Shown in pieces: positions 1,853 through 56,119 of a stretch of 56,119 nucleotides of DNA (its first letter is position 1; each line of letters begins with the position of its first letter). Under the pieces are notes generated by a model, which was not told where the DNA came from, made no database searches, and was given only the letters and a program-made list of their open reading frames with translations. The translations under genes were made by a program, and so were the position numbers. The DNA comes from a virus (lineage: Duplodnaviria; Heunggongvirae; Uroviricota; Caudoviricetes), in IMG/VR virus record IMGVR_UViG_3300036801_000212, positions 64,001 through 120,119 of that record, one strand, 5' to 3'.

Positions 1853-2089
1853 TCAGACAGAGTGCAGGAAGGCACTTCGCCTAGCCACGACTCGAGCGGC
1901 GGCAATTACTTGCATGTCAGCATGATGTGCGGCTCGGGCTAGCATGCCGTCATCGTCACTAGTCCAGCTGTCCAGGTAGAGCTTGCTCGCTGCCTCTTGC
2001 TTGGTCAGCAGGGAGGCGAGCTCGGTGATTGCATTGTCTCGGGACTCTTCGGCAGCGTAGGCGGCACGGTAGTTGTACATCGTGGTCAT
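1853..2089 (-). CDS. hypothetical protein
   Basis: C-terminal 78 aa (MTTMYNYRAAY...) of the 1853..2266 ORF look protein-like; the upstream part overlaps the GATC-repeat region. Confidence 0.4.
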   Translation of the reverse strand: MTTMYNYRAAYAAEESRDNAITELASLLTKQEAASKLYLDSWTSDDDGMLARAAHHADMQVIAAARVVARRSAFLHSV

Positions 2090-2735
2090 TAGATGATCTC
2101 CTGTCCATTGCGTGATCAACAAGAGTTCAAGATCGAATGATCTTCTCTCCAGGTGATCACACAAGATCAAATGATCTTGACTTGCGTGATGGAAGATCAG
2201 CGATCTTGTGAGACCTGGTGATCTTCCTCCGGCCTGTGCCGCGCGGCGCACCCGAAACTTGATCACCCTGCGCCCGCTTGGCCTTCACCGCGCACGTCAC
2301 GCCGGCAGTCCGGTCGTGATCAAATCCTCGCGGGTGGTTCCTAGCGGCGGGTGGGGTCGGGATTGCGGCCAGCCATTGCCGGACCGGTAGCGACATCCAT
2401 TCAAGATCGTTGATCTTGTCCGGGGCTTTCCGGTGAAGTGATCTTGAGTCAAGCTGATCTTGACCCGGGACTCGGTGTCGAGCTCTTTCGCTTACAAGGT
2501 CTAATCTACCCGGCGCCAGACTTGGGACATACCGCCGAATGGGTGGTAGCTGAGAGTGATCAGTTGCTTCGGCTAGCTAACGAGATGGTTACGCCGGCTA
2601 ACGATATGATCGTTACCGAACCGTGATGTTGACCTTCTCAGGCAACCGTTACCGAACCGTGACTGATCAACTGAGAGTCCCCCCCACCTGTTCGTTAGGC
2701 TAACTAACAAAGGCAAGGGTTCATGATCTTGGTCA
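2090..2735. repeat. GATC-dense region with AAGATC-N3/4-GATCTT palindromes and a 16-bp direct repeat
   Basis: About 20 GATC counted by eye in ~645 bp. Palindromes at 2129-2144, 2162-2179, 2193-2207 and 2401-2418. CGTTACCGAACCGTGA at 2611 and 2647. Confidence 0.75.
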
Positions 2736-2823
2736 CCCCTACGCGCGGCCGGGTCCCCTTTTTGGTATTCGATTAGCCTCCGATGCCCATTTATATTTTT
2801 GCTAGCTACGTGCGCGAAGTTTT

Positions 2824-3300
2824 TTAGCCATGCTCTCTCAGATACTCAGCAGCACGTTCCATCCTCTCGGGATCATCATCGAAGTGTCCTAGCATTTTGT
2901 TGCAGCTGGAACACAGCAATTCCCTAATAATCCCCGTTTTGTGGCAGTGGTCCACCGCTAGTTTGATAGTGTTGCCGTTTTTCGCCACGGCTGTCTCAAG
3001 TCTTCTGCAGATGGCGCACACGCCGCCCTGTTTAGACAGCATCTCTTCGTACTGTCCACGGGTAAACTCCTTGCACTCGCCGCCGTAAGGGGCGTGCTCG
3101 GACGAGCAGTACGTCCGGGGTCGCCCCTGCTCGGTGTCCAGCGGGATGACGTTGCCGCACCAGCATGTCGTCGGCCTTGCGGTCTGTGCCTGTTCCCAGA
3201 GTTCGGTAACGCGTTGCCGAGTCAGTCCGAGTCGCTGACCGATGGCCTTGTAGTGTCAATCCTTCTTCACGCCACTTGACGATCTGCCGGGACCTCTCGG
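2824..3300 (-). pseudogene. frameshifted HTH / Zn-finger / endonuclease VII gene
   Basis: C-terminus CAIC...LAVDHCHKTGIIRELLCSSCNKMLG is Endo VII-like. The same frame is open upstream to ~3255 (AIGQRLGLTRQRV, CWCG...YCSSEH). IVKWREEGLTLQ joins it only after removing one base at ~3247. Confidence 0.6.
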
Positions 3301-5207: not shown

Positions 5208-7103
5208 GTGAAAGACGAAAACCCCGAGGTAATTGAGGCTACCCTCGATCAGTTGGAATTGTTCAAAAGGCTTAAAAGGAAAAGTGAACTTCTAGAGCGT
5301 GCGATTGCGTTGAAGTCGGCGGATAAACCTCGACCTTGGCATTCGAAGGCCCGCGAGAAACAATTAGAACCTCAAGGCGATTTCTCGGTATGGCTCGTAA
5401 TGGCGGGCAGAGGCTGGGGAAAGACGGAAGTCGGGGCGAACTGGCTCGCTGAACAGGCCGTGAAGAATCCCGATACTGAATGGGCCATCGTTGCTCCCAC
5501 TTGGCGGGATTGTAAGAAAACGTGCATCGAAGGCAAATCGGGACTTTTGAAGGCTTTCCTTCCGGGCGAGCTTGATTCATTGAACGCTTCCGACTTGACC
5601 GTGAGATTGAAGAACGGCTCCAAAATCTATGGGTATTCCGCTGATGGTTACGACAGATTACGTGGGTCGAACCTTTCCGGTGCATGGATAGACGAGGCCG
5701 CCGCGATGGGCTCCGTGGATGACATGTTCAGGGAGGCTTTGCTGCCTGCTTTGCGTATCGGCAAGAACCCTCGAGTTCTCATCACCACTACTCCTCGGCC
5801 GATTCAGTTCCTGAAGGAGCTAATCGCACGGGAGGACGGCTCGGTCTATGTAACAAAGGGTTCGACGTGGGAGAACGCGGAGAATCTATCCGAGAGCGCC
5901 TTGACGGAGTTGAGGGTTCGTTACGAGGACACTCGAATCGGCCGCCAGGAGCTTGAGGGCGAGCTTCTTGACGACATCGAAGGTGCTCTCTGGAATCATC
6001 AAACCTTGGAAGACACAAGGATACAGAAATCTGAACTTCCGCAGTTGTCGCGAATTGTTGTCGGCGTTGACCCAGCTGTTACTAGTGGTGACAAATCCGA
6101 CTTCACGGGAATTATCGTGGCCGGTCGCTGTCATGATGGTCATCTATACATTCTTGATGATTTAACGATGAAGGGCACTCCTCATCAGTGTATGGCCAAG
6201 GCCATTGGCGCTTACCACAAGTGGCACGCGGACAGAATTGTCGGCGAGGTCAATAACGGTGGGGACTACATCGAGTCTGTTCTGCGTTCGATTGATTCGA
6301 ATGTCGCGTATAAAACTGTCCGTGCGACAAGGGGCAAGTTGGTTCGTGCTGAACCTATCTCCGCACTGTGGGAGCAGGGTAGGGGTCATATTGTTGGGTA
6401 CCTTCCGAAGTTGGAAGACCAGATGGCCACTTATACGGCGGACGCCAAGAAGAGTCCCGATGAGCTCGATGCGTGCTTCATTGCGGGGACGCCGGTTCTG
6501 ACGTCTTCGGGCGAAGTTCCGATCGAGAAGGTAGTCCCTGGCGATCTGGTTTGGACCCGTGCTGGCTGGAAGCCTGTCCTTCGCAGTGAATGTACACGGC
6601 GTGATGCAACCGTGATGAGCGTCAAACTGTCGAACGGGAATATTTTAACGGGAACTCCAAGCCACCGGATATGGACAGGGAATGGTTGGACTCGTCTCGA
6701 TGATCTCGTTTGTGGTGATATCCTAGAAGGATGGACGACTACCCATCAAGTATCGAATTCCAAGGGTTCACCTAGCGTCTTGTGCCGTGCCCCGTCTGTA
6801 CCACTGAGTTCTGGCAGTCTAATTATCGCGCCAAGCCCGCGACGTGCAGCCTTAAGTGTAGTTGGGTTATTCGCCGAGCCCGCGAAGAAGGACGTCTACG
6901 ACCTGATGGTGGCGCAGCAGCATGAGTTTGTCGCCGCGGGCGCTGTAGTTCATAACTGCGTTTGGGCCTGTACTGAATTAAATATGGGCGCGTCGGCAGC
7001 CATTTGGCTGTCGGCGATTTCGTCTATGTGCGATAACCCTGACTGCGGTTTCGCTAACACAAAAGGTGCGGCTTTCTGTCTCAGATGTCGTGAGCCTCTG
7101 TAA
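5208..7103 (+). CDS. terL: terminase large subunit, intein-containing
   Basis: Walker A AGRGWGKT, Walker B WIDEAA, nuclease motifs VGVDPA and SPDELDA|CVWA; GGAGG RBS. Confidence 0.95.
   Translation: MKDENPEVIEATLDQLELFKRLKRKSELLERAIALKSADKPRPWHSKAREKQLEPQGDFSVWLVMAGRGWGKTEVGANWLAEQAVKNPDTEWAIVAPTWRDCKKTCIEGKSGLLKAFLPGELDSLNASDLTVRLKNGSKIYGYSADGYDRLRGSNLSGAWIDEAAAMGSVDDMFREALLPALRIGKNPRVLITTTPRPIQFLKELIAREDGSVYVTKGSTWENAENLSESALTELRVRYEDTRIGRQELEGELLDDIEGALWNHQTLEDTRIQKSELPQLSRIVVGVDPAVTSGDKSDFTGIIVAGRCHDGHLYILDDLTMKGTPHQCMAKAIGAYHKWHADRIVGEVNNGGDYIESVLRSIDSNVAYKTVRATRGKLVRAEPISALWEQGRGHIVGYLPKLEDQMATYTADAKKSPDELDACFIAGTPVLTSSGEVPIEKVVPGDLVWTRAGWKPVLRSECTRRDATVMSVKLSNGNILTGTPSHRIWTGNGWTRLDDLVCGDILEGWTTTHQVSNSKGSPSVLCRAPSVPLSSGSLIIAPSPRRAALSVVGLFAEPAKKDVYDLMVAQQHEFVAAGAVVHNCVWACTELNMGASAAIWLSAISSMCDNPDCGFANTKGAAFCLRCREPL
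6474..6956 (+). mobile_element. mini-intein in TerL (161 aa)
   Basis: Starts CFIAGTPV, block B TPSH, ends VYDLMV...VVHN followed by Cys+1; too short for a homing endonuclease. Confidence 0.9.
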
Positions 7104-34822: not shown

Positions 34823-36628
34823 GTGAATCGTCGCTGGCGGAATCTACTGATTCGGCGTCAACGCTTTTTTCATGTACCCACTCGGGTCGCCGCGTCGCTG
34901 TCTCGCACAGTTTCCGACAACGCTTCCGCTAGCGATACACCCACCAGAAACTTAACATTCACCCGGTCGGTGGCGGACAACGCAGCCGCCGGTGATTCGG
35001 CTTCACGGCTGCTTGCTGAGTCCCGCGCCATCGCCGATGCGGTAGCCGCAACTGACGTCGTCACGCGGAGTGTTGCTGAGTCCCGATCGGTCGCGGACAC
35101 TGCGGCGTCGTCTGATTCCGCTACTCGTTCTGCTCTGGTGTTCATCCGGGCGGTGTCGGATTCAGCCGCAGCCTCGGATTCTGCTGTCCGGTCGCTGGTC
35201 ACAACACGTAATGTTGTCGATACCGCTTTGGCGTCGGATTCCTCTGTCCGGTCGCCGCAGGTCTACAGCCGGGCCGTTACAGATTCGGCGCCCGCTACGG
35301 ATTCGGCTAGCCGCAACGTTCAAGCCTTCGCTCGTAGTGTTTCCGATTCGGCGCTGGCCAGTGATGCGGTGGCCCGGGCGCAAAGCTTCACCCGCAGTGT
35401 TTCTGACTCTGCTTTGGCGTCCGATGCCGCGACGCGTGCACCCCAGGCGTTCACCCGTGCTCGTAGTGACACGGCGTTGGCGTCCGATTCGGTTGTTAGG
35501 TCTGCGCAGTCGTTTACGCGGACGGTCACCGATGCAGCGGCGGCCACAGATTCCGGTGCGAGGGCCTCGCAGTCCTTCACGCGTACCTGTAGCGATACAG
35601 CGGCTGCGGTTGACTCTGCTGTCAGGGCCGGTGTTGAGGCTCGGACGGCCGTTGACAGTGCTACCGCAAGTGATGTAGCGACCCGATCGCAGGTTAAAGC
35701 CCGCACTGTTACTGATGCTTCAGCGGCAGCCGATACGGTTGTTAGGGCCGCGCAGGTGTTCACCCGCACCTGTAGCGATTCGGCGTTGGCGTCCGACGTG
35801 GCCATCCCGGGCGGCGGGATAATTCGCGCGGTGGCTGATACGGCCTCCGCGACAGATTCGACCACTAGAACGCTTGTTGAAGCCCGCGTTGTCGCAGATT
35901 CCGCATTCGCGGCGGATGCGGTCGCGCGAGGACTTACCTCCACCCGCCCTGTCGGCGATTCGGCCGCGGCGAGCGACGCCGCTGTTCGATCGGCGCAAAA
36001 CGCTACCCGTCTAGTCGCCGATTCAGCACCGGCTGTCGATACCCCCACACGGTCGTCGCACTTCACGCGCTCGGGCAATGACACCGTCGCGGCCGGTGAC
36101 AACATTGTCCGGCTTGTCGTTATTCCCCGCGCCGTCAGCGACAGTGCCGGAGCCAACGACACCGCCAGTGGCGCTGTGCCAAGTATCGGAGCTGTCGCGG
36201 ACTCCGCGTTGGCCGCCGACGCAGCTGCTCGTTCATTGTTGCTGTTGCGTGTTCTCACCGACACCGCTGCCGTAGGGGATGCAGCTAGCCGCAGCTTCAA
36301 TGGTGCCCGAGCGGTCGGCGACACCGCACCCGCATCAGATTCGGCAGCCCCGGTCCCACTTAATTCCGGGTTTGTTGCCGATTCGGCGTTCGCCACCGAT
36401 GCCGCTGCCCGTAACGGTCTGGTGTTCATCCGGATCGTTCTAGATGCGGCGGCGTGCTCTGACGTTGCTACAGCACATCTGCGGCAGTGGGAAGCGTTTT
36501 CGCTGTTCCCCACTTTGACGCGGGGGGTGTACGCCTCCAACCCCGCCGCACTGGGCGCTGTCACCGCGACTTCGGGTGTGGCTGTAGCCGGTGCTCATTC
36601 TGATTCCCCGTCCCCCGTTCTTCGCTAG
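34823..36628 (+). CDS. highly repetitive Ala/Ser/Asp/Arg fibre-like protein
   Basis: More than 20 imperfect ~19-21-aa repeats (R.V.D.A.ASD...R). Confidence 0.75.
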   Translation: MNRRWRNLLIRRQRFFHVPTRVAASLSRTVSDNASASDTPTRNLTFTRSVADNAAAGDSASRLLAESRAIADAVAATDVVTRSVAESRSVADTAASSDSATRSALVFIRAVSDSAAASDSAVRSLVTTRNVVDTALASDSSVRSPQVYSRAVTDSAPATDSASRNVQAFARSVSDSALASDAVARAQSFTRSVSDSALASDAATRAPQAFTRARSDTALASDSVVRSAQSFTRTVTDAAAATDSGARASQSFTRTCSDTAAAVDSAVRAGVEARTAVDSATASDVATRSQVKARTVTDASAAADTVVRAAQVFTRTCSDSALASDVAIPGGGIIRAVADTASATDSTTRTLVEARVVADSAFAADAVARGLTSTRPVGDSAAASDAAVRSAQNATRLVADSAPAVDTPTRSSHFTRSGNDTVAAGDNIVRLVVIPRAVSDSAGANDTASGAVPSIGAVADSALAADAAARSLLLLRVLTDTAAVGDAASRSFNGARAVGDTAPASDSAAPVPLNSGFVADSAFATDAAARNGLVFIRIVLDAAACSDVATAHLRQWEAFSLFPTLTRGVYASNPAALGAVTATSGVAVAGAHSDSPSPVLR

Positions 36629-37885: not shown

Positions 37886-38323
37886 ATGCCTTGGCGGTGG
37901 TTGAAAAAATTCCCGGGGGTGAAATCCAGCAGACGTAGAACCGTCTGCCTCCTCATGGGGTTAGCGTGGGTAGCCTACGGGTTCGGAGTCCTATCCGATC
38001 CCTACCCTGAAGCCAGGTTCGGGAAGGTTATTACTTTCCTCACAGCGTTTCTTGACAGCCCCACCACAGGTTTAGTCTGGGTGATCGCGGGTATAGTGGG
38101 GATTGCCGCGGGGTTATCACTGTTGACTGAGTCGATGGCGTTCAGCGCTTTAGTGATACCGCCCGCCGTGTGGGGAATGCTGTACACGTGGTCGTGGGTG
38201 ACCTGGTGTGTTTTCCGCGACCATGGCAACGGTAGGGGGTGGGTTTCGGCAACGGCGTGGTTCGCGTTAGCTTTAATGCTTTCAGTTACAGCTGACTGGC
38301 CCGACGTTAAGGAGAAGGAATGA
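37886..38323 (+). CDS. four-TM membrane protein (lysis region)
   Basis: Four hydrophobic segments. Confidence 0.7.
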   Translation: MPWRWLKKFPGVKSSRRRTVCLLMGLAWVAYGFGVLSDPYPEARFGKVITFLTAFLDSPTTGLVWVIAGIVGIAAGLSLLTESMAFSALVIPPAVWGMLYTWSWVTWCVFRDHGNGRGWVSATAWFALALMLSVTADWPDVKEKE

Positions 38324-38736
38324 TCTCCTGGATCGCGGCTCACTCCACGCTGTCACTGTCCATCCTCGGTGGGGTTATGGTTCCTCTCTTCGTGGCGTTT
38401 TGGTCACACCGAACGGGGAAGCAATCCATCAAGGCGCAGACGAGACAAGCTGACGCCTCCGCCTACGACACCGCAAGAGAAATCTGGGGTGACCTCCTCG
38501 ACGACCTGAAAGAGCAGATCAGTGTTCAACGTCGTGAGATAGGTGCGATGAAGAAGCGCTTCGACGAAGAGATGAAAACTCTTCGTTCCCGGCTGGAAGA
38601 TTTAGAGTCTCAACGTGCCGGTGACCGGAGAGCTATCCACCTCTGGAGGGAATACGCTAAAGCATTGTTGCGGGCATTGAAATCGAACGGCATCGAACCT
38701 CCTCCGCATCCCGACGGTCTCGACTTGGATGAGTGA
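38320..38736 (+). CDS. single-TM coiled-coil membrane protein
   Basis: N-terminal TM followed by a heptad-rich region; AAGGAG RBS. Confidence 0.7.
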   Translation: MISWIAAHSTLSLSILGGVMVPLFVAFWSHRTGKQSIKAQTRQADASAYDTAREIWGDLLDDLKEQISVQRREIGAMKKRFDEEMKTLRSRLEDLESQRAGDRRAIHLWREYAKALLRALKSNGIEPPPHPDGLDLDE

Positions 38737-39239
38737 TGGGGAAACATTTTCATCGCCCACGGCGTTGGTCACGTTTTCGTCCGTCCCCAACATCGCGTCG
38801 CAACGTTCTCCTACTTGTCGCCGCACTGGGAGCTGGATGGCTATCCGGACATGTAGGTCCACATCCTGGTTCCGACACTCCCCAAATGGTGCCACAAGCC
38901 GAAGCGGCGAGTAGGGCACAGAAGTTCGCGAACGATGTGATCGGTCAGTGCAACATCAACCCAGGTGGGTGTACCACTCAGCTCACGGGCGAAGCGGCCG
39001 AGGTCGCATCTACTCCCATCCATGACGGGGTCGACGGTAAGGACGGAGCCGATGGCAACGACGGGAAAGACGGCAAGCCGGGGAAAGATGGCAAGGACGG
39101 GAAGGACGCTCCCGACGTAATGGAAATCTTCAAGTTCCCGAACGGCACCGCATGGGCGTGTCCCCGTACTGGCGCAACAGGTACTACTTCTATCCACGAC
39201 TGCACGTCCGCGAAGATTGAACAACCGGAAGGTAAATAA
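38733..39239 (+). CDS. membrane-anchored collagen-like protein
   Basis: TM segment, (G-K-D)n triplets and two Cys pairs. Confidence 0.7.
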   Translation: MMGKHFHRPRRWSRFRPSPTSRRNVLLLVAALGAGWLSGHVGPHPGSDTPQMVPQAEAASRAQKFANDVIGQCNINPGGCTTQLTGEAAEVASTPIHDGVDGKDGADGNDGKDGKPGKDGKDGKDAPDVMEIFKFPNGTAWACPRTGATGTTSIHDCTSAKIEQPEGK

Positions 39240-39448: not shown

Positions 39449-40432
39449 ATGAAGATTCTGTATTCGCTGATGGCGATTCTTGCCGCGCTGGCAATGACTA
39501 CCGGCGTGGCTCAGGCTAACGGTCACGGTCCACACGGCCATGGCCATTCCATTTCGTGTACCGGTACCGCAGGTGGCACCTGTACCCCGACTCTTCCTAA
39601 CGGGCACATTCTCCCGCCGTGCACCATCACTACCGGCACCACGTGTTCAGACACTGTCGGCGGTTTCGGTGGCCGTGGCGGTTTGGGTGGGCGTTTCGGT
39701 GGCTACCCGGGACTTCCGATGGGATTCCCGCAACTGCTGAATGGCAACCTTCTCTCCCTCGAAGCTTTGGGTGTCGTCGGAGTCAACGCCAATATCGACG
39801 TGTGCGGCTACCCGTCGTTCCAGGATTTCGATGCCTTCGCTGGTCCGCACTATGGTGCCGGTTGGGGAATGGCTCGGGGTCGTTGGTTCCAGGCTCAGCA
39901 GGCCCAGCAGGAATGGCTGGCATTGCGTAATGCCGCCGGGTGTGGCACAGTGCTTAACAGTTTCAACCAGTTCAACGGATTCAACGAGTTCCCGGGGATG
40001 CTGAACGGCCAGAATTTCAACCTCCAGCAGTATGGTGGGGGTCTGGTGAATCTCTGCGCCTATTCGAACTTCAACTCTTTCGATGGCTACCTGGGTTCTC
40101 GCCTCGGTTCTCGCTGGGGTGGTCGTGGCGGTCTGCGTGGACGCTTCGGTAATCAGAATGCGTGGTCGAACAACTTCAACCAGTTACGCAACCAGGTTGG
40201 CTGTCCGGTAGTTGTTACTCCCGGCGCGTATCAGCCTCCCGTGATCCAGCCGCAGCCTGTGATTCAGCCTCAGCCTGTTGTGGAACCGCAGCCTGTGATT
40301 GTTCCTCAGCCCGCTCCGGCACCCGCGGTGACTCCCGCTCCTCCGGTTGGCCCGACCATCATCGAGGTTCCGGAAGGTCCGCCGAATACTGGGGATTCCG
40401 GTCTCGCGCCGGATGCTAGGTGGGTCGACTAG
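39449..40432 (+). CDS. secreted protein, candidate sortase substrate
   Basis: Signal peptide ending AQA, two Cys-bounded repeats, PQPV stalk and C-terminal VPEGPPNTG. Confidence 0.75.
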   Translation: MKILYSLMAILAALAMTTGVAQANGHGPHGHGHSISCTGTAGGTCTPTLPNGHILPPCTITTGTTCSDTVGGFGGRGGLGGRFGGYPGLPMGFPQLLNGNLLSLEALGVVGVNANIDVCGYPSFQDFDAFAGPHYGAGWGMARGRWFQAQQAQQEWLALRNAAGCGTVLNSFNQFNGFNEFPGMLNGQNFNLQQYGGGLVNLCAYSNFNSFDGYLGSRLGSRWGGRGGLRGRFGNQNAWSNNFNQLRNQVGCPVVVTPGAYQPPVIQPQPVIQPQPVVEPQPVIVPQPAPAPAVTPAPPVGPTIIEVPEGPPNTGDSGLAPDARWVD

Positions 40433-40434
40433 AG

Positions 40435-41055
40435 ATGTTGCGAGTCCTTGGACTCATGCTGGTGGGAATGCTGGTGTCTTGTGGCTCCGGCATTCCCACT
40501 GCCGACCCGGTGCTGACTCCCGCGGCGATGCCGAGTTCAGCACCGGCTGTGCCCGCTCTCTCCTCCCGGCGGGTTATTCCCGTGGCTATTCGGATTCCCT
40601 CGATCAAGGTCGATGGTCGACAGATCATGGCGCTTGGACTGAACGGTGATCATTCGCTTCAGGTGCCACCGCTGAAGAATCCATTGGTCGCAGGCTGGTA
40701 CACCGGAGCGCCAGTACCCGGGAACCCAGGAAGTGGAATCATGGCCGCGCACGTCGATGCTGGAGGGGTTAAAGGACTCTTCTATCGTCTCTCCGAGATG
40801 AAGCCGGGCGACCTCGTCTTCGTCGACCGCTCGGATGGCAAAACGGCTGAGTTTAAGACCGCGAGCGTGGATAAATATTGCAAGGACGCAGTCGGTTGCC
40901 CGGCGGGCGAGAAAGTGTTCCCTTCGAAGCTGTTCTATAGCAGCCAGCCTCAAGCGCAACTGCATCTCACGACTTGCGGCGGCAGATATGACGCGAAAGA
41001 TCGTAACTACCTGGAATCCATAGTCGTGATTTCAACTCTGGTAAGCATGAGCTGA
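40435..41055 (+). CDS. class F sortase (lipoprotein)
   Basis: LVSC lipobox; P..IRIPSI, VAGWY..AP.PG..G..IMAAHVD, LFYRL..MKPGD.V and LHLTTCGG motifs. Confidence 0.85.
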   Translation: MLRVLGLMLVGMLVSCGSGIPTADPVLTPAAMPSSAPAVPALSSRRVIPVAIRIPSIKVDGRQIMALGLNGDHSLQVPPLKNPLVAGWYTGAPVPGNPGSGIMAAHVDAGGVKGLFYRLSEMKPGDLVFVDRSDGKTAEFKTASVDKYCKDAVGCPAGEKVFPSKLFYSSQPQAQLHLTTCGGRYDAKDRNYLESIVVISTLVSMS

Positions 41056-41064
41056 GAGGCTTCG

Positions 41065-41964
41065 ATGACTTCTGGCCTCGATTACTACAGTGGCGCCACG
41101 ATCAACCCTGCGGACATCGCGGCGGCCAATTATTCGTTCGTCTGCCGCTACGTAGACAACCCTGTTTATGGCCTCGGCGCGAAAGACATCACCCAGGTCG
41201 AGTACTACGAGTTGATCCGTGCTGGACTGAGTGTCTATCTCGTCTTCGAACACACCGCACAGGACTACGCTGCCGGGTTCCTGGGCGGTGTGGTAAATGC
41301 GCAAAGAGCGTTAGCTGGCGCGCAGTGGCTCGATTACTCTGGGCCGATATTCATGTCAGTTGACACGCATCTCGACGCGCAGCAAATTCCCGTAGCCATC
41401 AGCTATCTTGACGGAGCTCAACACATCCTCGCGACCAAGCTGGGTGTCTATGGCTTCAGTGAACTGATCCAGGCATGCCAGGCCCAGAATGTCGGGGCTT
41501 ACTTTTGGCAGGCCGGCGATAAACCAGCGCCGAATTCCGGCGTGCATCTATGGCAGGAAAACAACAACACGGTAACCATCGATGGCACCCCGTGCGACGT
41601 CGACTTGATGTTACTTCCGATGCCGCCTCCGGAGGAAGATATGACACCCGATCAATCGGCGATGCTCACGGCGCTCTACCAGTATGTATCCGGCAGTGCC
41701 GAGGTCGTTCCGCAGGGAACATCATGGCCGGGATGGCAGACGTGGCCGGGAGGATCAGACCAGAGTCTCTCAGCGACAGACTATCTCCGCCAAGCCAATG
41801 TGGACATCACTCTCCTGAAAGCCGAGATCGCAGCTATCAAAGCCACTATGGATTCACTTTCTGTGGGTCAAGAAGGTAGCTTCGGTAATCTCTCGCCGGA
41901 GGACATTTCCCGAATCGCCGCGGCGGTGATGGAGTCAATGGCAAGTAAACTCGGTGGCTCCTGA
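41065..41964 (+). CDS. endolysin, DUF1906 / GH25-like glycoside hydrolase
   Basis: GLDY...FVCRYV...VYLVFE...PIFMSVD...GVYG...YFWQ...HLWQ...CDVD pattern. Confidence 0.85.
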   Translation: MTSGLDYYSGATINPADIAAANYSFVCRYVDNPVYGLGAKDITQVEYYELIRAGLSVYLVFEHTAQDYAAGFLGGVVNAQRALAGAQWLDYSGPIFMSVDTHLDAQQIPVAISYLDGAQHILATKLGVYGFSELIQACQAQNVGAYFWQAGDKPAPNSGVHLWQENNNTVTIDGTPCDVDLMLLPMPPPEEDMTPDQSAMLTALYQYVSGSAEVVPQGTSWPGWQTWPGGSDQSLSATDYLRQANVDITLLKAEIAAIKATMDSLSVGQEGSFGNLSPEDISRIAAAVMESMASKLGGS

Positions 41965-42171
41965 ATGTGTCGCTACGTCTGGTTCGCATGGCTCGGTGTC
42001 GGCATATACCTTGAGTGGCGCGGTTTCAACCACGATTGCCATCGTACGTTTTCCCGGGAAGTGCACCACTGGACCCATGTGAAGCGCTGTCAATGGTCGC
42101 CGCTTCTATGGGTCGCACTAGGGATCTGGTTCTCTTACCATCTTCGCGTACTCAAAGATTTGGAAGCTTGA
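41965..42171 (+). CDS. small membrane protein
   Basis: Two Trp-rich hydrophobic stretches. Confidence 0.5.
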   Translation: MCRYVWFAWLGVGIYLEWRGFNHDCHRTFSREVHHWTHVKRCQWSPLLWVALGIWFSYHLRVLKDLEA

Positions 42172-42464
42172 TGTTCACCTGGGTTTTCTGGAAGGCCACA
42201 CTATCTGCGGCGATTACCGCTTTCGCATACACGCTTATTGGCGTCTTGGGTACGGGACCGTCGGGGCTTGACTTCTTCTCGATCGATTGGAAGCACGCGC
42301 TGGGCGTCTCGCTTGTGGTCGCGCTGGTTGCGATTTTGCACGCCATTGTGCCGGTCGCACCGCAGGTGGCAGCAGTGCGACGTCTCCGCACTTCGCCGAC
42401 CGTTCCGATGGCCCCCGTGGAGGCAGTCCCTCATCGGGGTGAACACGAGGCGCCGGATTCGTAA
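42171..42464 (+). CDS. holin (r1t-like)
   Basis: FWKA...AITAFAYTLIGVLG...IDW..ALGVSLV pattern; after the endolysin. Confidence 0.75.
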   Translation: MFTWVFWKATLSAAITAFAYTLIGVLGTGPSGLDFFSIDWKHALGVSLVVALVAILHAIVPVAPQVAAVRRLRTSPTVPMAPVEAVPHRGEHEAPDS

Positions 42465-42667: not shown

Positions 42668-42712
42668 TGGCCTAGCTTCTCTTAACTGAGAGGCTAGGCC
42701 ATCTTTTTTTTT
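42668..42712 (+). terminator. intrinsic terminator ending the late operon
   Basis: TGGCCTAGC/GCTAGGCCA stem followed by a 9-T run. Confidence 0.85.
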
Positions 42713-42734
42713 GCCCAAAATCAGCGCAAGAAAG

Positions 42735-42765
42735 GACCCCCGCCACGTAGCCTGTGACGGGGGTC
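42735..42765 (-). terminator. terminator hairpin downstream of the ncRNA pair
   Basis: GACCCCCGTCAC/GTGGCGGGGGTC 12-bp stem followed by CTTTCTT. Confidence 0.7.
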
Positions 42766-45516: not shown

Positions 45517-46608
45517 TCATGATCTGACATCTCGCTCGAACGACGCGACGCCGCCAAGCCAGTCGCGGCGCTGTCGAACGACGCTGGTGCCCAGGGCCAC
45601 GCCGATGAACACCACGCCGAGGGAACCGACCAGCCACTCCGGCAGGTGCACGCCGTACAGCTTCAACAGCATCACCACGCCCAGGAGCAGAATGGCCCAA
45701 TGGGCGCCGTGTTCGAGGTACCGGTACTTGGCGAGGGTGCCGGTGCGGACGAGATGCACGGTCATGGACCGGACCCACATGGCGCCGGCTCCGAGACCGG
45801 CCATGATGACCAGGACGGCGGTAGTGATGGCGAACGCCCCGATCACCCCGTCGAACGAGAACGAGGCGTCCAGCACCTCCAGTCGGATGAACATGATGCC
45901 GGCAGCAGCACCGATCAGTACTTGCACTCTCTGCGTTTCACCCTCGTCGGGGTTGTCAAACGCGGCGCCGAACATGTCGAGGCCGACGTGCAGCAGCACC
46001 CCGATGATCGCGGCAACGAACACGGGAGTGCGCTGTCCGTCATCGACGGTGAAGAACGCGACCACCGCGACGGCGATCATGACGAAGATGGTGATGTTGT
46101 CGAATCGGCCCAGCGGGGCCAGACGCGACTCCAGCCAGCCGATCCAGTGGACGTCTTTCTCGGCGTCAAGGAAGTAGCTGACTCCGATCATGAGCAGGAA
46201 CGTGCCGCCGAACGCGCCGATCATCGGTCCGGCCTGCACCAGGTGCTGTGCGTACACGGCTGGCTGATGGACGGCCAGGTTGACGACGTCCCCGAAGGAC
46301 AGCCCGGCGGCGAGTTGCACGATGAAGATGGGCAGCGCGAACCGGACCACGAAGACGGCGACCAAGATGCCGGCGGTCATGAACGCCTTCTGCCAGACCG
46401 GGGACATGCGGGTGACCAGTTTCGAGTTGACGACAGCGTTGTCGAAGCTGAACGTCACCTCAAGGAGGGTCAGGATGACCGCGGTGAGTAGCGTCGCTGG
46501 GCCGGCCGCGACGGCGACAGCGGCCCAGGCGAAGACGGTGACGGCAGCGGAAGGGCCGTAGATGCCCCACAGGTTTACCCGGCTCCGCGCTGGGGCAGAA
46601 GCAGTCAC
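45517..46608 (-). CDS. TerC-like integral membrane protein (DUF475 type)
   Basis: LEVTFSFDNAVVN, LEVLDASFSFDGVIGAFAIT and YLEHGAHWAI motifs; GTG start overlaps the vWA stop. Confidence 0.85.
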   Translation of the reverse strand: MTASAPARSRVNLWGIYGPSAAVTVFAWAAVAVAAGPATLLTAVILTLLEVTFSFDNAVVNSKLVTRMSPVWQKAFMTAGILVAVFVVRFALPIFIVQLAAGLSFGDVVNLAVHQPAVYAQHLVQAGPMIGAFGGTFLLMIGVSYFLDAEKDVHWIGWLESRLAPLGRFDNITIFVMIAVAVVAFFTVDDGQRTPVFVAAIIGVLLHVGLDMFGAAFDNPDEGETQRVQVLIGAAAGIMFIRLEVLDASFSFDGVIGAFAITTAVLVIMAGLGAGAMWVRSMTVHLVRTGTLAKYRYLEHGAHWAILLLGVVMLLKLYGVHLPEWLVGSLGVVFIGVALGTSVVRQRRDWLGGVASFERDVRS

Positions 46609-47378
46609 GACAGCACGCCGGCCTTCGCCGCGGCGGCGACCCAGGAGTCCCACTCGTCGGCCATGGCGTCGGCGAACACCAGATCGGACACCGATGCGGG
46701 GTCGGCGAAGAACTGTGCGTTGACGTTGTCGAGTAGCCGGTTGTCGGGGCTCATGTTGTCAAGCTCATTGAGATAGGGGACGTCGCGGATGGCCAGGAAC
46801 TTCAGGAACACCGGGTAGCTCGCCAGCTTGCACACGATGTCGGTCGTCGCCGGCTGGGAGTTCGGGTTGCCGTCGGTCACAACCGCGCAGAAGATCGGCT
46901 CGGTGGTGGTCTCCGCCAGCTCCCGGACCGCGATGAGAGCCGATGCCAAATCGGTGGTGCCCATTCGCTCCGGCCGCCAAATCCGCTGGTTGACGACGCC
47001 GCGGTAGTTGTCGACGGTCACATCGACGGCGGGATGGACGCACGAGTCAAACGGGATCACGGGGACGGTGCCGTCCAGGTCGATCTGCAAGGCGAACCCC
47101 AACACCCGCTCCACGAGGGTCTGGACCTTGCCGTTGGCGTAATCGGCGCGCATCGACCCGGAGTGGTCGAGCGCCAACACAGCCTGCGCGCGAATCCCGG
47201 CCAGGCCCCGCTTGGACAGGGCGATACCGGCTTTGTCGGCGCGCTTGGCCAGGTCGATGTGTCCGGCGTCGCGGACCTTCGACAGATTGATCGCTGAGTT
47301 TCCGGTGGAATCCTTGATCAGGTTGACGGTCCGCGACGGACGGAAAACGTCACCGCCTTTACGATTGAACAAGCGCAT
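46605..47378 (-). CDS. vWA-domain protein (Ter-associated)
   Basis: MIDAS motif LALDHSGSM, GTTD, VVTDG; LDNVNAQF. Confidence 0.85.
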   Translation of the reverse strand: MRLFNRKGGDVFRPSRTVNLIKDSTGNSAINLSKVRDAGHIDLAKRADKAGIALSKRGLAGIRAQAVLALDHSGSMRADYANGKVQTLVERVLGFALQIDLDGTVPVIPFDSCVHPAVDVTVDNYRGVVNQRIWRPERMGTTDLASALIAVRELAETTTEPIFCAVVTDGNPNSQPATTDIVCKLASYPVFLKFLAIRDVPYLNELDNMSPDNRLLDNVNAQFFADPASVSDLVFADAMADEWDSWVAAAAKAGVLS

Positions 47379-47406: not shown

Positions 47407-47988
47407 TCAGCCGATGTGGTACGCGGTTACGAGCCCCTGGAGTTCACTGGTGAAGCCATCACCGATGGCCCGGAAATTCCACGCCTGCCCGCGGCGGTAC
47501 AGCTTGCCGAACACCAGCGAGTTGACCCCGGCGTTGGTGTCCTCGGTGAGGTCGTAGCGGGCCAGCTCGGTATTGGTGGTCTCGTCGACAACGCGGACGA
47601 AAGCGTCCTCCACCAGCCCGAAGTTCTGGCCACCTCTCGCCTTGGCCTCGTGGATCGTCACCGCCACCACCAGTTCGGTAACGTCGGCCGGTACTCGTGC
47701 CAGGTCGATCAGGATTTGCTCGTCGTCGCCGTCGCCACCGCCGGTGAGGTTGTCGCCCTGATGCACGATCACGTCGCCCGGGGCCGCCATGTGGTTGTAG
47801 AAGACGAACCATTCGGGGCTCGCACACGCGCCCGAGGAGTTGAGTCCGATGATGGAAGCGTCGAGGTCGTAGGCGGGTCCGTCGGTACGACGGACGTCCC
47901 AACCCAATCCGATGCGGACCTTGGTGAGAGCGCCACCGGCTTCCTTGGACAGGTCCACCTTGCCGCCCTTGGACAGGTTGATCGCCAT
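47407..47988 (-). CDS. terD: TerD-family protein
   Basis: INLSKGGKVDL, GLGWD, DLDAS, FVFYN, GDNLTG.GDGDDEQI and WNFRAIG motifs; GAAGGG RBS before ATG 47988. Confidence 0.9.
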   Translation of the reverse strand: MAINLSKGGKVDLSKEAGGALTKVRIGLGWDVRRTDGPAYDLDASIIGLNSSGACASPEWFVFYNHMAAPGDVIVHQGDNLTGGGDGDDEQILIDLARVPADVTELVVAVTIHEAKARGGQNFGLVEDAFVRVVDETTNTELARYDLTEDTNAGVNSLVFGKLYRRGQAWNFRAIGDGFTSELQGLVTAYHIG

Positions 47989-48435
47989 GAGATTTCCCTT
48001 CGTGGGTTTACCGGTGATGACCACGCCTGTGGGGGCGGTGGCCAATGTCATGCCGATGTCACACAACCACGGGTGCAGCGGTGTGTCGGCCAGGTTGGAA
48101 AGTTCGTGGGTGTCGCGGTGGAGCCCAATGTCTGAGGTGCGGCAGATTCCGGTCGCTACCACAGAAATGCCGTTCCACTGGCCGACCTGCATCCAGTCAG
48201 TAGGGTCGACGGCCATGATGACCGCACCCCAATGGTTGGCCAGAGCGGTGGGAATGTAGGTGTCGCGGCCAGCCATCAAGTCGGTGGAGCGACCACCGGC
48301 CGTGCTGACGAACTGGCGGAGCAGGTACCAGCCTCGGTTGGTGACGATGAGCCGGTGAGCGGGAAGGTCGCTGGCGGTGAGTCCGAGGTCGGCCCGACTG
48401 CCGGGTGTCCAGTGCGTGACCACGTGTCGAAGCAT
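47989..48435 (-). CDS. in-frame N-terminal extension of TerD (possible fusion)
   Basis: 149 open codons in frame with terD, starting at an ATG. Confidence 0.35.
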
Positions 48436-48577: not shown

Positions 48578-48855
48578 CAAGATCATGGGGCGGATTTTGG
48601 GGCAAACTGGGTTTCACGGTCCGACACGTTTTCGACACTCTCCGATGTAATCCGACTGCAGACGCTACTTATAGTTACCTCAATGCGACCAACCTGGGAC
48701 TTTACCCCTCCGTCGCGCTGACTCTTAATCAGCGGGTTCGGGGTTCGAGTCCCTGGCGGCGCACTCTAACTACATAGCTCTGACCAGCGGAAACGCCGAT
48801 TCTAAGATCATATCTCACTGGTCCGCCACAAGATCATGGGGCAAAAATGGGGCAG
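48578..48855. other. attP: core = 3' part of tRNA-Lys(CTT) at 48717-48764, flanked by arm-type repeats
   Basis: GCTGA-CTCTTAA-TCAGC anticodon arm plus T arm GTTCGAGTCC, with no acceptor 5' strand or D arm. CAAGATCATGGGGC at 48578 and 48829, with extra TGGGGCA copies. Adjacent to int. Confidence 0.85.
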
Positions 48856-49993
48856 GTGGGTTGCGACTGCCAGCCAGCGCGGCGCGAACCTCATCGTGAC
48901 CGTCGTCCTGAAGATGTGAGTACCTTTGAGTCGTCGTGATCGACTCGTGGCCAAGCAGATATTGCACTCGCGCCAGGGAGACGCCGGCGGTGACCAGACG
49001 GCTGGCGTAGGTATGTCGACAGTCGTGCACCCGGGCGTGGCCCACCTCTGCTCGAGCCAGGGCACGCTTCCAGGTGACGTTGTTGAAGTTGTGCGGATCA
49101 ATCACCGCACCCTTCGGGCCGACCACGACAAGCTCTGATCGGCACACTGACCCTTTCGCGTGAGTGAAGCCACACTTCCTCGCCGAATTACTACTCTGCA
49201 GTAGTACTGTGTGTAGATGCCTGGACATCGGGATGGTCCTACGTTTTTTTCCCTTGGGGTAGGACTCGATGACCCTGTCGTACTGGTTCCATTTCTCGAC
49301 CACGTCGATAGTCCCCCGGTCGAAGTCGAGCCGATGCCGATGCAGTCCCACCGCTTCCCCCAGGCGCAGCCCGGTCTCCAGCAGGATGGTGGTCAGTACC
49401 CAGTACGGCCCGGACATCCGCGCGAGGATGAGTTCGACCTCATCGGCGGTGAAGTATCTTTCCGGCGCCGGAGGAAGGGTCGGCAAGGTGACCGCGTAGC
49501 ACGGAGAGTGATCAATGACGTTGGCCCGGATCGCGTCCTTCATTGACCGACTGAGCTGGTAGTAACACTGCCTCACCGTGGACGCGGAAAGATTCGGGCT
49601 CTTGGCGAGTTTGTTGATCCACACCTGGATGTCGGCATGTTCGATTTCGTTGAGCGGGACATCTTTCCAGCGGGGCTTGACATGCTGGTCCCTGAGGGTA
49701 ACCTGAGAACGCATGGTGCCGGCCTCCAGACTTCGGGTGGGCCACCATCGATCGCACCAATCCCCCCAGCGCATCCGGCCCTTGGACGGGTCGCGTCTGC
49801 TTCCCTCGATGACTTTTTGTTCCTGGGCACTGGCCCAGCGGTAGGCGCCTCGTTTGTGAACGAAAACCTGGGAGCGCTTGCTGCCATCGGCCAAACGGTA
49901 GATGCCCCGAACTTTCACTATCCCGGTCTTATCCGGGGGCAAATCTTCGGTCCAGGCCATGGCTTGATCCTTTCGCGACAGAGCGGCCGGCAT
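48815..49993 (-). CDS. int: tyrosine integrase
   Basis: TGLRLGE, PKGKKRR, HDCRHTYA, LGHESITTTQRY catalytic motifs. Confidence 0.95.
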   Translation of the reverse strand: MPAALSRKDQAMAWTEDLPPDKTGIVKVRGIYRLADGSKRSQVFVHKRGAYRWASAQEQKVIEGSRRDPSKGRMRWGDWCDRWWPTRSLEAGTMRSQVTLRDQHVKPRWKDVPLNEIEHADIQVWINKLAKSPNLSASTVRQCYYQLSRSMKDAIRANVIDHSPCYAVTLPTLPPAPERYFTADEVELILARMSGPYWVLTTILLETGLRLGEAVGLHRHRLDFDRGTIDVVEKWNQYDRVIESYPKGKKRRTIPMSRHLHTVLLQSSNSARKCGFTHAKGSVCRSELVVVGPKGAVIDPHNFNNVTWKRALARAEVGHARVHDCRHTYASRLVTAGVSLARVQYLLGHESITTTQRYSHLQDDGHDEVRAALAGSRNPPAPFLPHDLVADQ

Positions 49994-55883: not shown

Positions 55884-56119
55884 ATGGCTGAATGTACTGT
55901 CCGAACGCAGGCTGAGCTGGACCGTGCAGTCGCAGACCGGATCGAACGGATTGAGATTCGCTCCGACTCTGGGGTGTGGATCGACGTCACCTCAAGCGAC
56001 TCGTCCACGGTGACGGCCTACGACTCGTCCACGGTGAGGGCCTACGGCTCGTCCACGGTGACGGCCTGCGGCTCGTCCACGGTGACGGCCTACGACTCGT
56101 CCACGGTGACGGCCTACGG
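55884..56119 (+). CDS. octapeptide-repeat (beta-solenoid) protein, truncated by the window end
   Basis: GGAGG RBS; five 24-bp repeats from 55998 encoding (D/G)SSTV(T/R)A(Y/C). Confidence 0.8.
   Translation, partial: MAECTVRTQAELDRAVADRIERIEIRSDSGVWIDVTSSDSSTVTAYDSSTVRAYGSSTVTACGSSTVTAYDSSTVTAY

Follow-up and report, generated by a model that had tools for sequence, protein, structure and literature searches.

A class F-type sortase and its candidate substrate beside the lysis genes of an uncultured soil phage, probably of actinobacteria

Introduction

What would a tailed phage do with a sortase encoded next to its lysis genes, and on which protein would such an enzyme act? The question is raised by positions 64,001 to 120,119 of IMG/VR virus record IMGVR_UViG_3300036801_000212 (Caudoviricetes), a stretch of 56,119 nucleotides referred to throughout as the window, in which the gene for a lipoprotein sortase directly follows that for a secreted protein. 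The original prediction, made from the letters of the sequence, held that the enzyme is a class F sortase, that the secreted protein is a candidate substrate and that the two may covalently decorate the cell wall or the virion, for receptor masking, superinfection exclusion or lysis control. Family searches, comparison of related loci and structure modelling make it very likely, in our judgement, that the two proteins are a working enzyme-substrate pair. It is also probable that the sortase is dedicated to this partner and would fix it covalently to an amine of the infected cell's envelope, most likely in peptidoglycan, with both proteins made along with the late genes.

Identification of the sortase

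The 206-residue enzyme matched the Pfam Sortase family (PF04203, peptidase C60) at E 3.3e-15, with 56.4 bits against a cut-off of 26.6. Its best match among the NCBIfam models was class_F_sortase (NF033748; E 4.3e-40, 136.9 bits, 147 of 155 model positions), and the class E hidden Markov model (HMM) gave only 23 bits on the same protein. We use the terms class F-type and class F-like because this is the best class match while its score lies below the curated cut-off. At the N-terminus an n-region and a hydrophobic stretch lead to the lipobox L-V-S-C, with Cys16 (codon 40480-40482) as the predicted lipid-bearing residue. Such a lipobox occurs in the window sortase and in most of its close metagenomic relatives, whereas cellular relatives have a plain N-terminal membrane helix. 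The two residues singled out by the original prediction, His106 in AAHVD (40750-40752) and Cys181 in LTTCGG (40975-40977), proved invariant in an alignment of 19 relatives, and LTTCGG has the form of the TLxTC-like catalytic motif. An insertion of the form Cys-x5-Cys (Cys149/Cys155) is confined to close relatives.

The catalytic arginine was not mapped, because a phmmer search of PDB sequences with the sortase found nothing and a search of the same sequences with the sortase profile gave weak matches to sortases C and E only. Arg184 is invariant in close relatives only; Arg or Lys stands at position 190, with Arg or His at 190/191 in more distant relatives. Residues 184 and 190 both lie at the modelled interface with the partner (described below), and the invariant Arg132 lies away from it.

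An AlphaFold2 model of the sortase built from the 19 relatives (predicted local distance difference test score, pLDDT, 85; predicted template modelling score 0.74) gave 118 PDB matches at E ≤ 0.001 in Foldseek. All 50 of the 50 matches listed were sortases, the best being Thermobifida fusca SrtE, SrtA and SrtC at E ~5e-9. By these matches the model has the sortase fold, an eight-stranded barrel. Among the BFVD predicted viral structures we found no convincing match to the model, and no PHROGs family matched either the sortase or the candidate substrate. In the sortase tree the window enzyme fell in a well-supported clade (100/99), separate from the cellular clade (99/96). That tree included four wrongly cut rows (L002, L044, L070 and L071; L numbers denote related loci) and is read here for these two clades only, not for the direction of transfer.

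The upstream protein

The gene directly upstream encodes a protein of 327 residues (P0048) with a predicted Sec-type signal peptide (residues 1-23, 39449-39517) that ends in GVAQA and is followed by NG. Behind it come a His/Gly-rich N-terminus, two repeats of ~70 residues (~95-165 and ~185-250), a Pro-rich linker (~255-302) and a C-terminal signal, the protein ending in TIIEVPEGPPNTGDSGLAPDARWVD. Eight Cys are conserved in the family. A signal peptide, a folded head and a Pro-rich stalk are the usual build of wall-anchored proteins.

The protein had no Pfam, PHROG or NCBIfam match. The two repeats were modelled by AlphaFold2 at pLDDT 80-90; the best matches of the fold (VIA Z 3.6, to small cytochrome c, PB1 and FF domains; atlas TM 0.25) were uninformative, which we take as no proof of a new fold. 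The family is small: a profile search recovered 31 representatives among 1.84 billion proteins, and a search with the substrate alignment found no relative in a collection of 185,579 species genomes. Lys is absent from the mature window protein, and other family members have 0-3 Lys at non-conserved places where about seven would be expected; the background in the phage's other long reading frames is 2.4%. With no Lys in the mature protein, the pilin-motif Lys of class C polymerisation is also missing.

Elsewhere in the 120-kb genome we found no second tail of this kind, so that the tail of this protein is a single case. The endolysin was considered as another target of the sortase, having the sequence VVPQGTSWPGW, and was rejected for want of the T/A-G-D/G core described below.

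A truncated GVDTG-type signal

The C-terminal motif had been read originally as an LPXTG-like signal ending in PNTG. Comparison of the family leads to a different description. In 40 of 41 tails we found [VI]-P-x-G-x-[VPI]-x, then a variable residue (T in 25, A in 7, D in 4, G in 2, S in 2), then Gly in all 40, then D (26), G (12) or N (2). PNTG is thus the end of a longer signal, [VI]PxGxxx[T/A]G[D/G], in which Thr is not invariant. A canonical LPXTG signal is not present, since VPEGPPNTG is followed by an acidic 12-mer. The observation that neither a transmembrane segment nor a basic tail follows PNTG holds in the window and extends to the whole substrate family: the tails end 7-15 residues past the invariant Gly, and their longest hydrophobic run is nine residues.

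To see which signals cellular class F sortases read, we collected 58 loci around relatives from genomes of Streptosporangiaceae/Trebonia, Acidothermaceae, Cellulomonas, Streptacidiphilus and Streptomyces. Within Streptosporangiaceae/Trebonia nearly all loci with a clear upstream gene (~36 of 51 examined) have a DUF4397-type partner, whose tail reads PPxGGVxTGFGGTAxHGPGSPxPW and continues into a helix and then RLRR. A side observation on the metagenome-assembled genomes of this group is that in loci L016-L056, at about 2000-3000, a DUF4397 protein with a GVDTG-CTERM signal nearly always precedes the class F sortase gene. In Cellulomonas, Streptacidiphilus and Streptomyces, too, the cellular class F sortase gene has upstream of it a gene whose product bears this motif. 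The ice-binding-protein-like partner of Cellulomonas terrae has the tail VPRGGIATGDGSSLAGP, followed by a helix and RARR, and this stretch nearly equals the phage VPEGPPNTGDSGLAPD. The NCBIfam model of the signal, NF058571 (GVDTG_CTERM), was matched by 7 of 8 cellular partner proteins tested, plus P0058. The core motif of this model recurs in the window as EGPPNTGD and in relatives as GVDTGDGS, GSVDTGDGS and GIDTGDGS.

Because the same motif in cellular class F partners continues into a helix and a basic tail, we regard the phage signal, on sequence comparison, as a truncated GVDTG-type signal. Databases already tie the GVDTG-type signal to class F sortases; in the literature we found no paper on the signal or on DUF4397 with sortase. 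A short sub-family (L015, L079 and L080) has a weak hydrophobic stretch and an Arg-rich end, with sortases that bear a plain N-terminal hydrophobic anchor, and by its sequences looks like an intermediate form.

Conservation of the gene pair

In all of the 14 phage contexts examined, the substrate gene is followed by the sortase gene, the two mostly overlapping or 0-6 nt apart (gaps mostly -4 to +6 nt). These contexts are the window, L002, L004-L007 (counted as one), L008/L009 (as one), L010, L011, L015, L074, L076, L077-L081 and one 124-kb ENA contig known from its gene table only; they are contigs of up to 124 kb with tail, endolysin and r1t-holin genes. The upstream partner is either a member of the substrate family or its short form of 145-169 residues, and the pairing extends to members whose matches to the family profile reach no better than E 5e-26 and 7e-05. 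In every case the pair lies between tail and lysis genes, either directly beside the endolysin or separated from it by one or two small genes, in one case by three. Because the adjacency recurs in 14 of 14 contexts and the motif is kept in 40 of 41 members, adjacency and tail motif exceed chance.

Scanning IMG/VR with the close-relative sortase alignment returned five contigs. Scans of IMG/VR with the single sortase sequence and with the substrate alignment returned nothing, and TBLASTN of the sortase against 50,697 cultured-phage records gave no match.

Separately, in one phage-like lineage we noted a further such sortase (L012) that is accompanied by an IS605-type transposase gene instead of the partner. 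This IS605/TnpB-type gene (L012 54-2059, L013 2256-4261) occupies the place of the substrate gene and overlaps the sortase start by 4 nt.

Modelled complex of enzyme and tail

The complex prediction combined residues 44-206 of the sortase, its domain, with residues 280-327 of the partner, and was set against three controls. The complex scored 0.71 and the best of the three controls 0.00; the score mark applied here is reached by 58 of 80 solved complexes and by 2 of 110 mismatched pairs. The runs agreed in at least 93% of contacts, with partner pLDDT at least 73. In the model Cys181 contacts Gly315, and residues 107-108, next to His106, contact 315-320. Pro312 lies among residues 75, 77, 104 and 179, and Pro308 contacts 75 and 168. 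This modelled geometry is that expected for attack on the Thr314-Gly315 bond.

The modelled interface is unusually long (~175 contacts) and includes the tail past the putative scissile bond, with tail residues 322-325 running along sortase residues 183-185 in the hairpin after the Cys. The model suggests that the tail docks on the enzyme and could in this way replace membrane retention. Sequence variation among the relatives agrees with such docking. Hairpins of the form CGGR[YF]xAxx[RK]NY occur with tails of the form GD[SA]G[LI]APD, and CGPGDL...NY[LQ]QQT with GG[FD]xxA[YF]...AH; hairpin type and tail type thus change together, in about four groups, which is consistent with docking and fits a dedicated pair. 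Conserved adjacency, a tail motif common to cellular class F partners and the complex model together make the protein encoded 2 bp upstream of the sortase a very good candidate substrate, as originally supposed.

Proposed mechanism and alternatives

Cleavage, acceptor, timing and benefit to the phage are parts of the scheme that we infer from these data. In it the pair would share the transcription of the late tail and lysis genes, with translational coupling between its two members. The 327-residue protein would be exported via Sec with loss of its signal peptide, and the exported sortase would be held by its lipid anchor on the outer face of the membrane. There it would bind the C-terminal signal, VPEGPPNTG with its 12-residue tail; with no membrane helix in the substrate, its capture would rely on docking of the tail onto the sortase. 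Attack by Cys181 on the Thr314-Gly315 bond would then set the tail free and give a thioester, and the protein would be handed to an envelope amine of the host, most likely of a peptidoglycan precursor or cross-bridge. The outcome would be an infected cell whose wall carries the two-repeat head, attached by way of its Pro-rich stalk. Possible benefits are a coating of the wall that keeps progeny from re-adsorbing to debris, a block to superinfection and an aid to lysis, all three of which are compatible with the fixed place beside the endolysin. The purposes named in the original prediction, receptor masking among them, are guesses.

Several observations weigh against wall fixing by a dedicated class F-type pair. 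On the side of the enzyme, the class F score of 136.9 is below the NCBI curated cut-off of 166, and no Arg occupies one fixed column after the Cys. On the side of the partner, only 25 of 40 tails have Thr ahead of the invariant Gly, the others having Ala, Asp, Gly or Ser, and the helix and basic tail by which a substrate is normally kept at the membrane are missing from the signal. NF058571 gave no match at E ≤ 1 to P0048 residues 270-327 or to P0081, nor any at E ≤ 10 to the whole phage genome; the phage tails miss this model because they lack the helix and basic tail that form the bulk of its 44 positions. Finally, the complex prediction used our own alignments, and its score may partly reflect the model's memory of solved sortase-peptide complexes.

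Among the alternatives, the one that survives best, though we consider it unlikely, is that the sortase processes its partner without fixing it to the wall, either clipping the tail as a maturation step or joining the newly made C-terminus to the protein's own N-terminus to give rings or head-to-tail chains. The missing membrane-retention segment would suit such processing, as would the near absence of Lys, which leaves the N-terminal amine almost the sole amine of the mature proteins, and their Gly/His-rich N-termini. The predicted mature N-terminus is nevertheless Asn, Ala, Arg or Asp, with no single conserved residue; wall-spanning anchors typically have a Pro-rich stalk ahead of the signal, as here, and cellular proteins with the same motif bear full anchoring signals.

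Two further alternatives appear improbable, to about the same degree. The sortase might be aimed mainly at GVDTG-type proteins of the host, with the upstream protein acting as a docking regulator or pseudo-substrate in its active site. That the motif equals that of cellular class F partners, that the modelled interface reaches so far past the scissile bond and that the phage genome has no other such signal would all agree with this idea. It is harder to reconcile with a partner that has the full build of a displayed protein, with an invariant Gly, mostly preceded by Thr, kept over ~40 diverged members, and with the co-variation of sortase loop and tail types, even though the latter spans only about four groups. 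The pair might instead be lysogenic-conversion cargo (a moron), expressed from a prophage to alter the surface of the lysogen and not in lytic growth. The genome does encode a tyrosine integrase, and the junction of tail and lysis genes is a common site for cargo; this alternative moreover concerns timing only and is compatible with the mechanism proposed above. Yet from the tail genes to the terminator-like hairpin at 42668 a simple scan, which covered sigma-70 consensus promoters only, found no promoter-like site and no further strong terminator-like site that would isolate the pair, and the gaps to its neighbours are 1-9 nt. No prophage copies are known, in keeping with the lack of a substrate relative in the 185,579 species genomes. 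Decoration of the virion, part of the original prediction and suggested by the position of the genes after the tail genes, is highly improbable given export signals on both proteins when virions are assembled in the cytoplasm, and so is a chance or decaying, functionless adjacency, since pair, catalytic residues and motif are kept between relatives only about 35% identical.

Covalent attachment of the partner to the wall of the infected cell is thus the reading we prefer. We tentatively offer an extension of it, which we rate as rather less likely than not to hold in full: that the phage has a sortase signal of a new kind, which works without a membrane anchor. In this view the enlarged hairpin of a lipid-anchored phage sortase would receive the short tail as an additional strand, so that a soluble, Lys-free protein is captured and ligated. 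The cassette might then belong to the programme by which soil actinophages lyse the cell, for example by coating the wall or debris or by preparing the wall for the endolysin, and would give a first handle on class F/GVDTG function.

The late operon and its genome

The features of the locus are collected in Table 1. As had been proposed, both genes of the pair belong to the late strand and neighbour the lysis genes. Their supposed position between holin-like genes and the endolysin was right in so far as they stand directly upstream of the endolysin; the membrane-protein genes upstream (37886-38323 and 38320-38736) had no match to any holin family, and the sole recognisable holin sits downstream of the endolysin. 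The match to that holin family covers residues 57-114 of the open reading frame, and for this reason its true start may be the ATG at 42171.

Table 1. Features of the late region and the integrase gene, in window coordinates
Feature	Positions	Strand	Remarks
Three upstream envelope-protein genes	37886-39239	+	Synteny kept in L002, L004 and L008
Four-helix membrane protein	37886-38323	+	Matches phrog_4026 'minor tail protein'
One-helix coiled-coil protein	38320-38736	+	No holin family match
Membrane-anchored collagen-like protein	38733-39239	+	Third of the three envelope-protein genes
Small secreted His-rich protein, 76 aa	39217-39447	+	Ends 1 nt before substrate gene; conserved there in close relatives
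Candidate substrate gene, 327 aa (P0048)	39449-40432	+	Directly upstream of sortase gene
Sorting-type motif V-P-E-G-P-P-N-T-G, residues 307-315	40367-40393	+	Putative scissile bond Thr314-Gly315
Twelve-residue acidic tail (DSGLAPDARWVD) after motif	40394-40429	+	In place of the usual membrane helix and basic tail
Class F-type sortase, lipoprotein, 206 aa	40435-41055	+	Pfam and NCBIfam matches, AlphaFold2 model
Endolysin, Rv2525c-like glycoside hydrolase domain	41065-41964	+	PF08924, E 3e-12; phrog_13480 'endolysin'; starts 9 nt past sortase stop
r1t-type holin (Phage_r1t_holin)	42015-42464	+	PF16945, E 2e-07; phrog_443 'holin'
Strong terminator-like hairpin, 14 pairs then T8	42668-42709	+	Closes late transcription unit
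Tyrosine integrase	48815-49993		Beside TerC-like/TerD genes

The genes are tightly packed, with gaps of 1 nt (His-rich protein/substrate), 2 nt (substrate/sortase) and 9 nt (sortase/endolysin). The substrate stop codon TAG (40430-40432) lies 2 nt ahead of the sortase ATG, and the sortase ribosome-binding site AGGTGG falls within the last codons of the substrate gene. Other terminator-like hits on the + strand are weak stems of 5-6 pairs at 38190-38373. At 42668-42765 we observed two convergent terminator-like hairpins, one on the + strand (42668-42701, then T8) and one on the - strand (42765-42735), which face each other and part the late operon from the leftward genes.

The small protein preceding the substrate has ~50 mature residues, of which up to one third are His (HDFHRHPHP...HHDFGHDFGHGH), and no family match in Pfam, PHROG or NCBIfam. 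Its counterparts in close relatives are at L002 8493-8702, L004 6693-6995 and L078 4766-5098, that in L004 having been missed by the gene caller. Because the mature N-terminus of the substrate is also His/Gly-rich, metal binding or pH sensing may, to judge from these compositions, belong to the module.

The window is the last 56 kb of a record of 120,119 bp. The two ends of the record (C1:1-135 and window 55984-56118) are 99% identical over 135 bp that fall in a short tandem repeat, from which we consider that the record is probably a complete genome opened inside a repeat; IMG/VR labels it 'linear' and 88% complete. G+C is even along the record at ~57%, and the same DNA is present in soil metagenomes from eight studies. 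Among its genes are those for a terminase interrupted by an intein-like Hint insertion, the portal, the tape measure and the tail, together with a tyrosine integrase gene and genes of the TerD/TerC-like type. Megablast of 24 kb around the sortase gave no match in the cultured-phage records, and the portal and endolysin of the nearest cultured phages are only 25-32% identical. The phage is an uncultured soil phage, probably of actinobacteria.

Some other genes of the window deserve mention. The large terminase subunit (5208-7103, +) has Hint/intein-splicing domain matches at residues ~423-583, C-terminal of the nuclease domain, a probable intein. Adjoining the tyrosine integrase gene are genes for a TerC-like/DUF475 membrane protein and a TerD-domain protein of tellurite or stress-resistance type (45517-46653 and 47407-48435, both -). 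In the tail region, a 601-residue protein without family match (34823-36628, +) consists over nearly its whole length of ~30 degenerate repeats of ~19 residues (xSRxVxDxAxAxDSxxR), and a long antisense open frame mirrors these repeats.

Comparison with known systems

The nearest known systems are the cellular class F sortases of Actinomycetota with their GVDTG-CTERM partners (NF033748 and NF058571), which belong to the same best-HMM subfamily as the phage enzyme. They have the same gene order, with the substrate directly upstream, and the same core, P-x-G-x-x-x-T/A-G-D/F-G. Their signals, however, go on into a helix of ~20 residues and an Arg-rich tail, whereas in the phage substrates only 7-15 residues follow the Gly. 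The cellular enzymes also have an N-terminal membrane helix, whereas the window enzyme and most of its phage relatives are predicted lipoproteins, some with the Cys-x5-Cys insertion. The phage case shows a complete substrate family whose signal does without the membrane-retention segment regarded as necessary in cells. Among actinomycetes class F sortases are widespread, and we know of no published physiological role or accepted recognition motif for them. As a compact, co-evolving enzyme-substrate pair, the phage system would be convenient for defining both motif and acceptor. Its constant position beside the endolysin hints at an unrecognised accessory step in lysis or release by phages of Gram-positive bacteria, and an enzyme that reads a long non-LPXTG motif with a docking tail could serve as an orthogonal protein-ligation tool.

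In Actinoplanes, deletion of all four class F sortases gave no phenotype (PMC13251363). The accounts that cite Di Girolamo et al. 2019 (PMC8225981, PMC13251363) present SrtF of Propionibacterium (Cutibacterium) acnes as the only characterised class F sortase, a housekeeping enzyme with reported use of LPXTG. By that description, on which alone we set the two side by side, it is a Cys transpeptidase of Actinomycetota of the same nominal class as the phage enzyme, whose partner in contrast has no LPXTG.

The best structural matches are class E sortases (Streptomyces coelicolor SrtE1 and T. fusca SrtE, PDB 9iok; Foldseek E 5e-9 to 2e-8, TM ~0.5-0.6). These are only 17-20% identical in sequence to the phage enzyme, the class E HMM gave 23 bits against 137 for class F, and class E signals are LAXTG.

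Viral sortases were described as previously undocumented in a preprint (bioRxiv 10.64898/2026.10.24.761521, Oct 2026) on huge phages of the gut, in which 24 sortases of class B were reported together with canonical substrates. Those SrtB modules likewise have a putative substrate with a signal peptide encoded immediately upstream, and display on the host wall was proposed for them. They differ in being of class B and related to those of Bacillota, in belonging to phages of more than 200 kb from animal guts and in having a full signal (PXTG, helix and basic tail). The system described here has a class F-type enzyme, a 120-kb soil phage, a truncated signal and a cassette that abuts the lysis genes. 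What is new in it is a class F-type phage enzyme with a predicted lipid anchor, a private family of candidate substrates, the truncated signal and the fixed place by the lysis genes, and it extends viral sortases from class B in gut huge phages to class F-type in putative soil actinophages.

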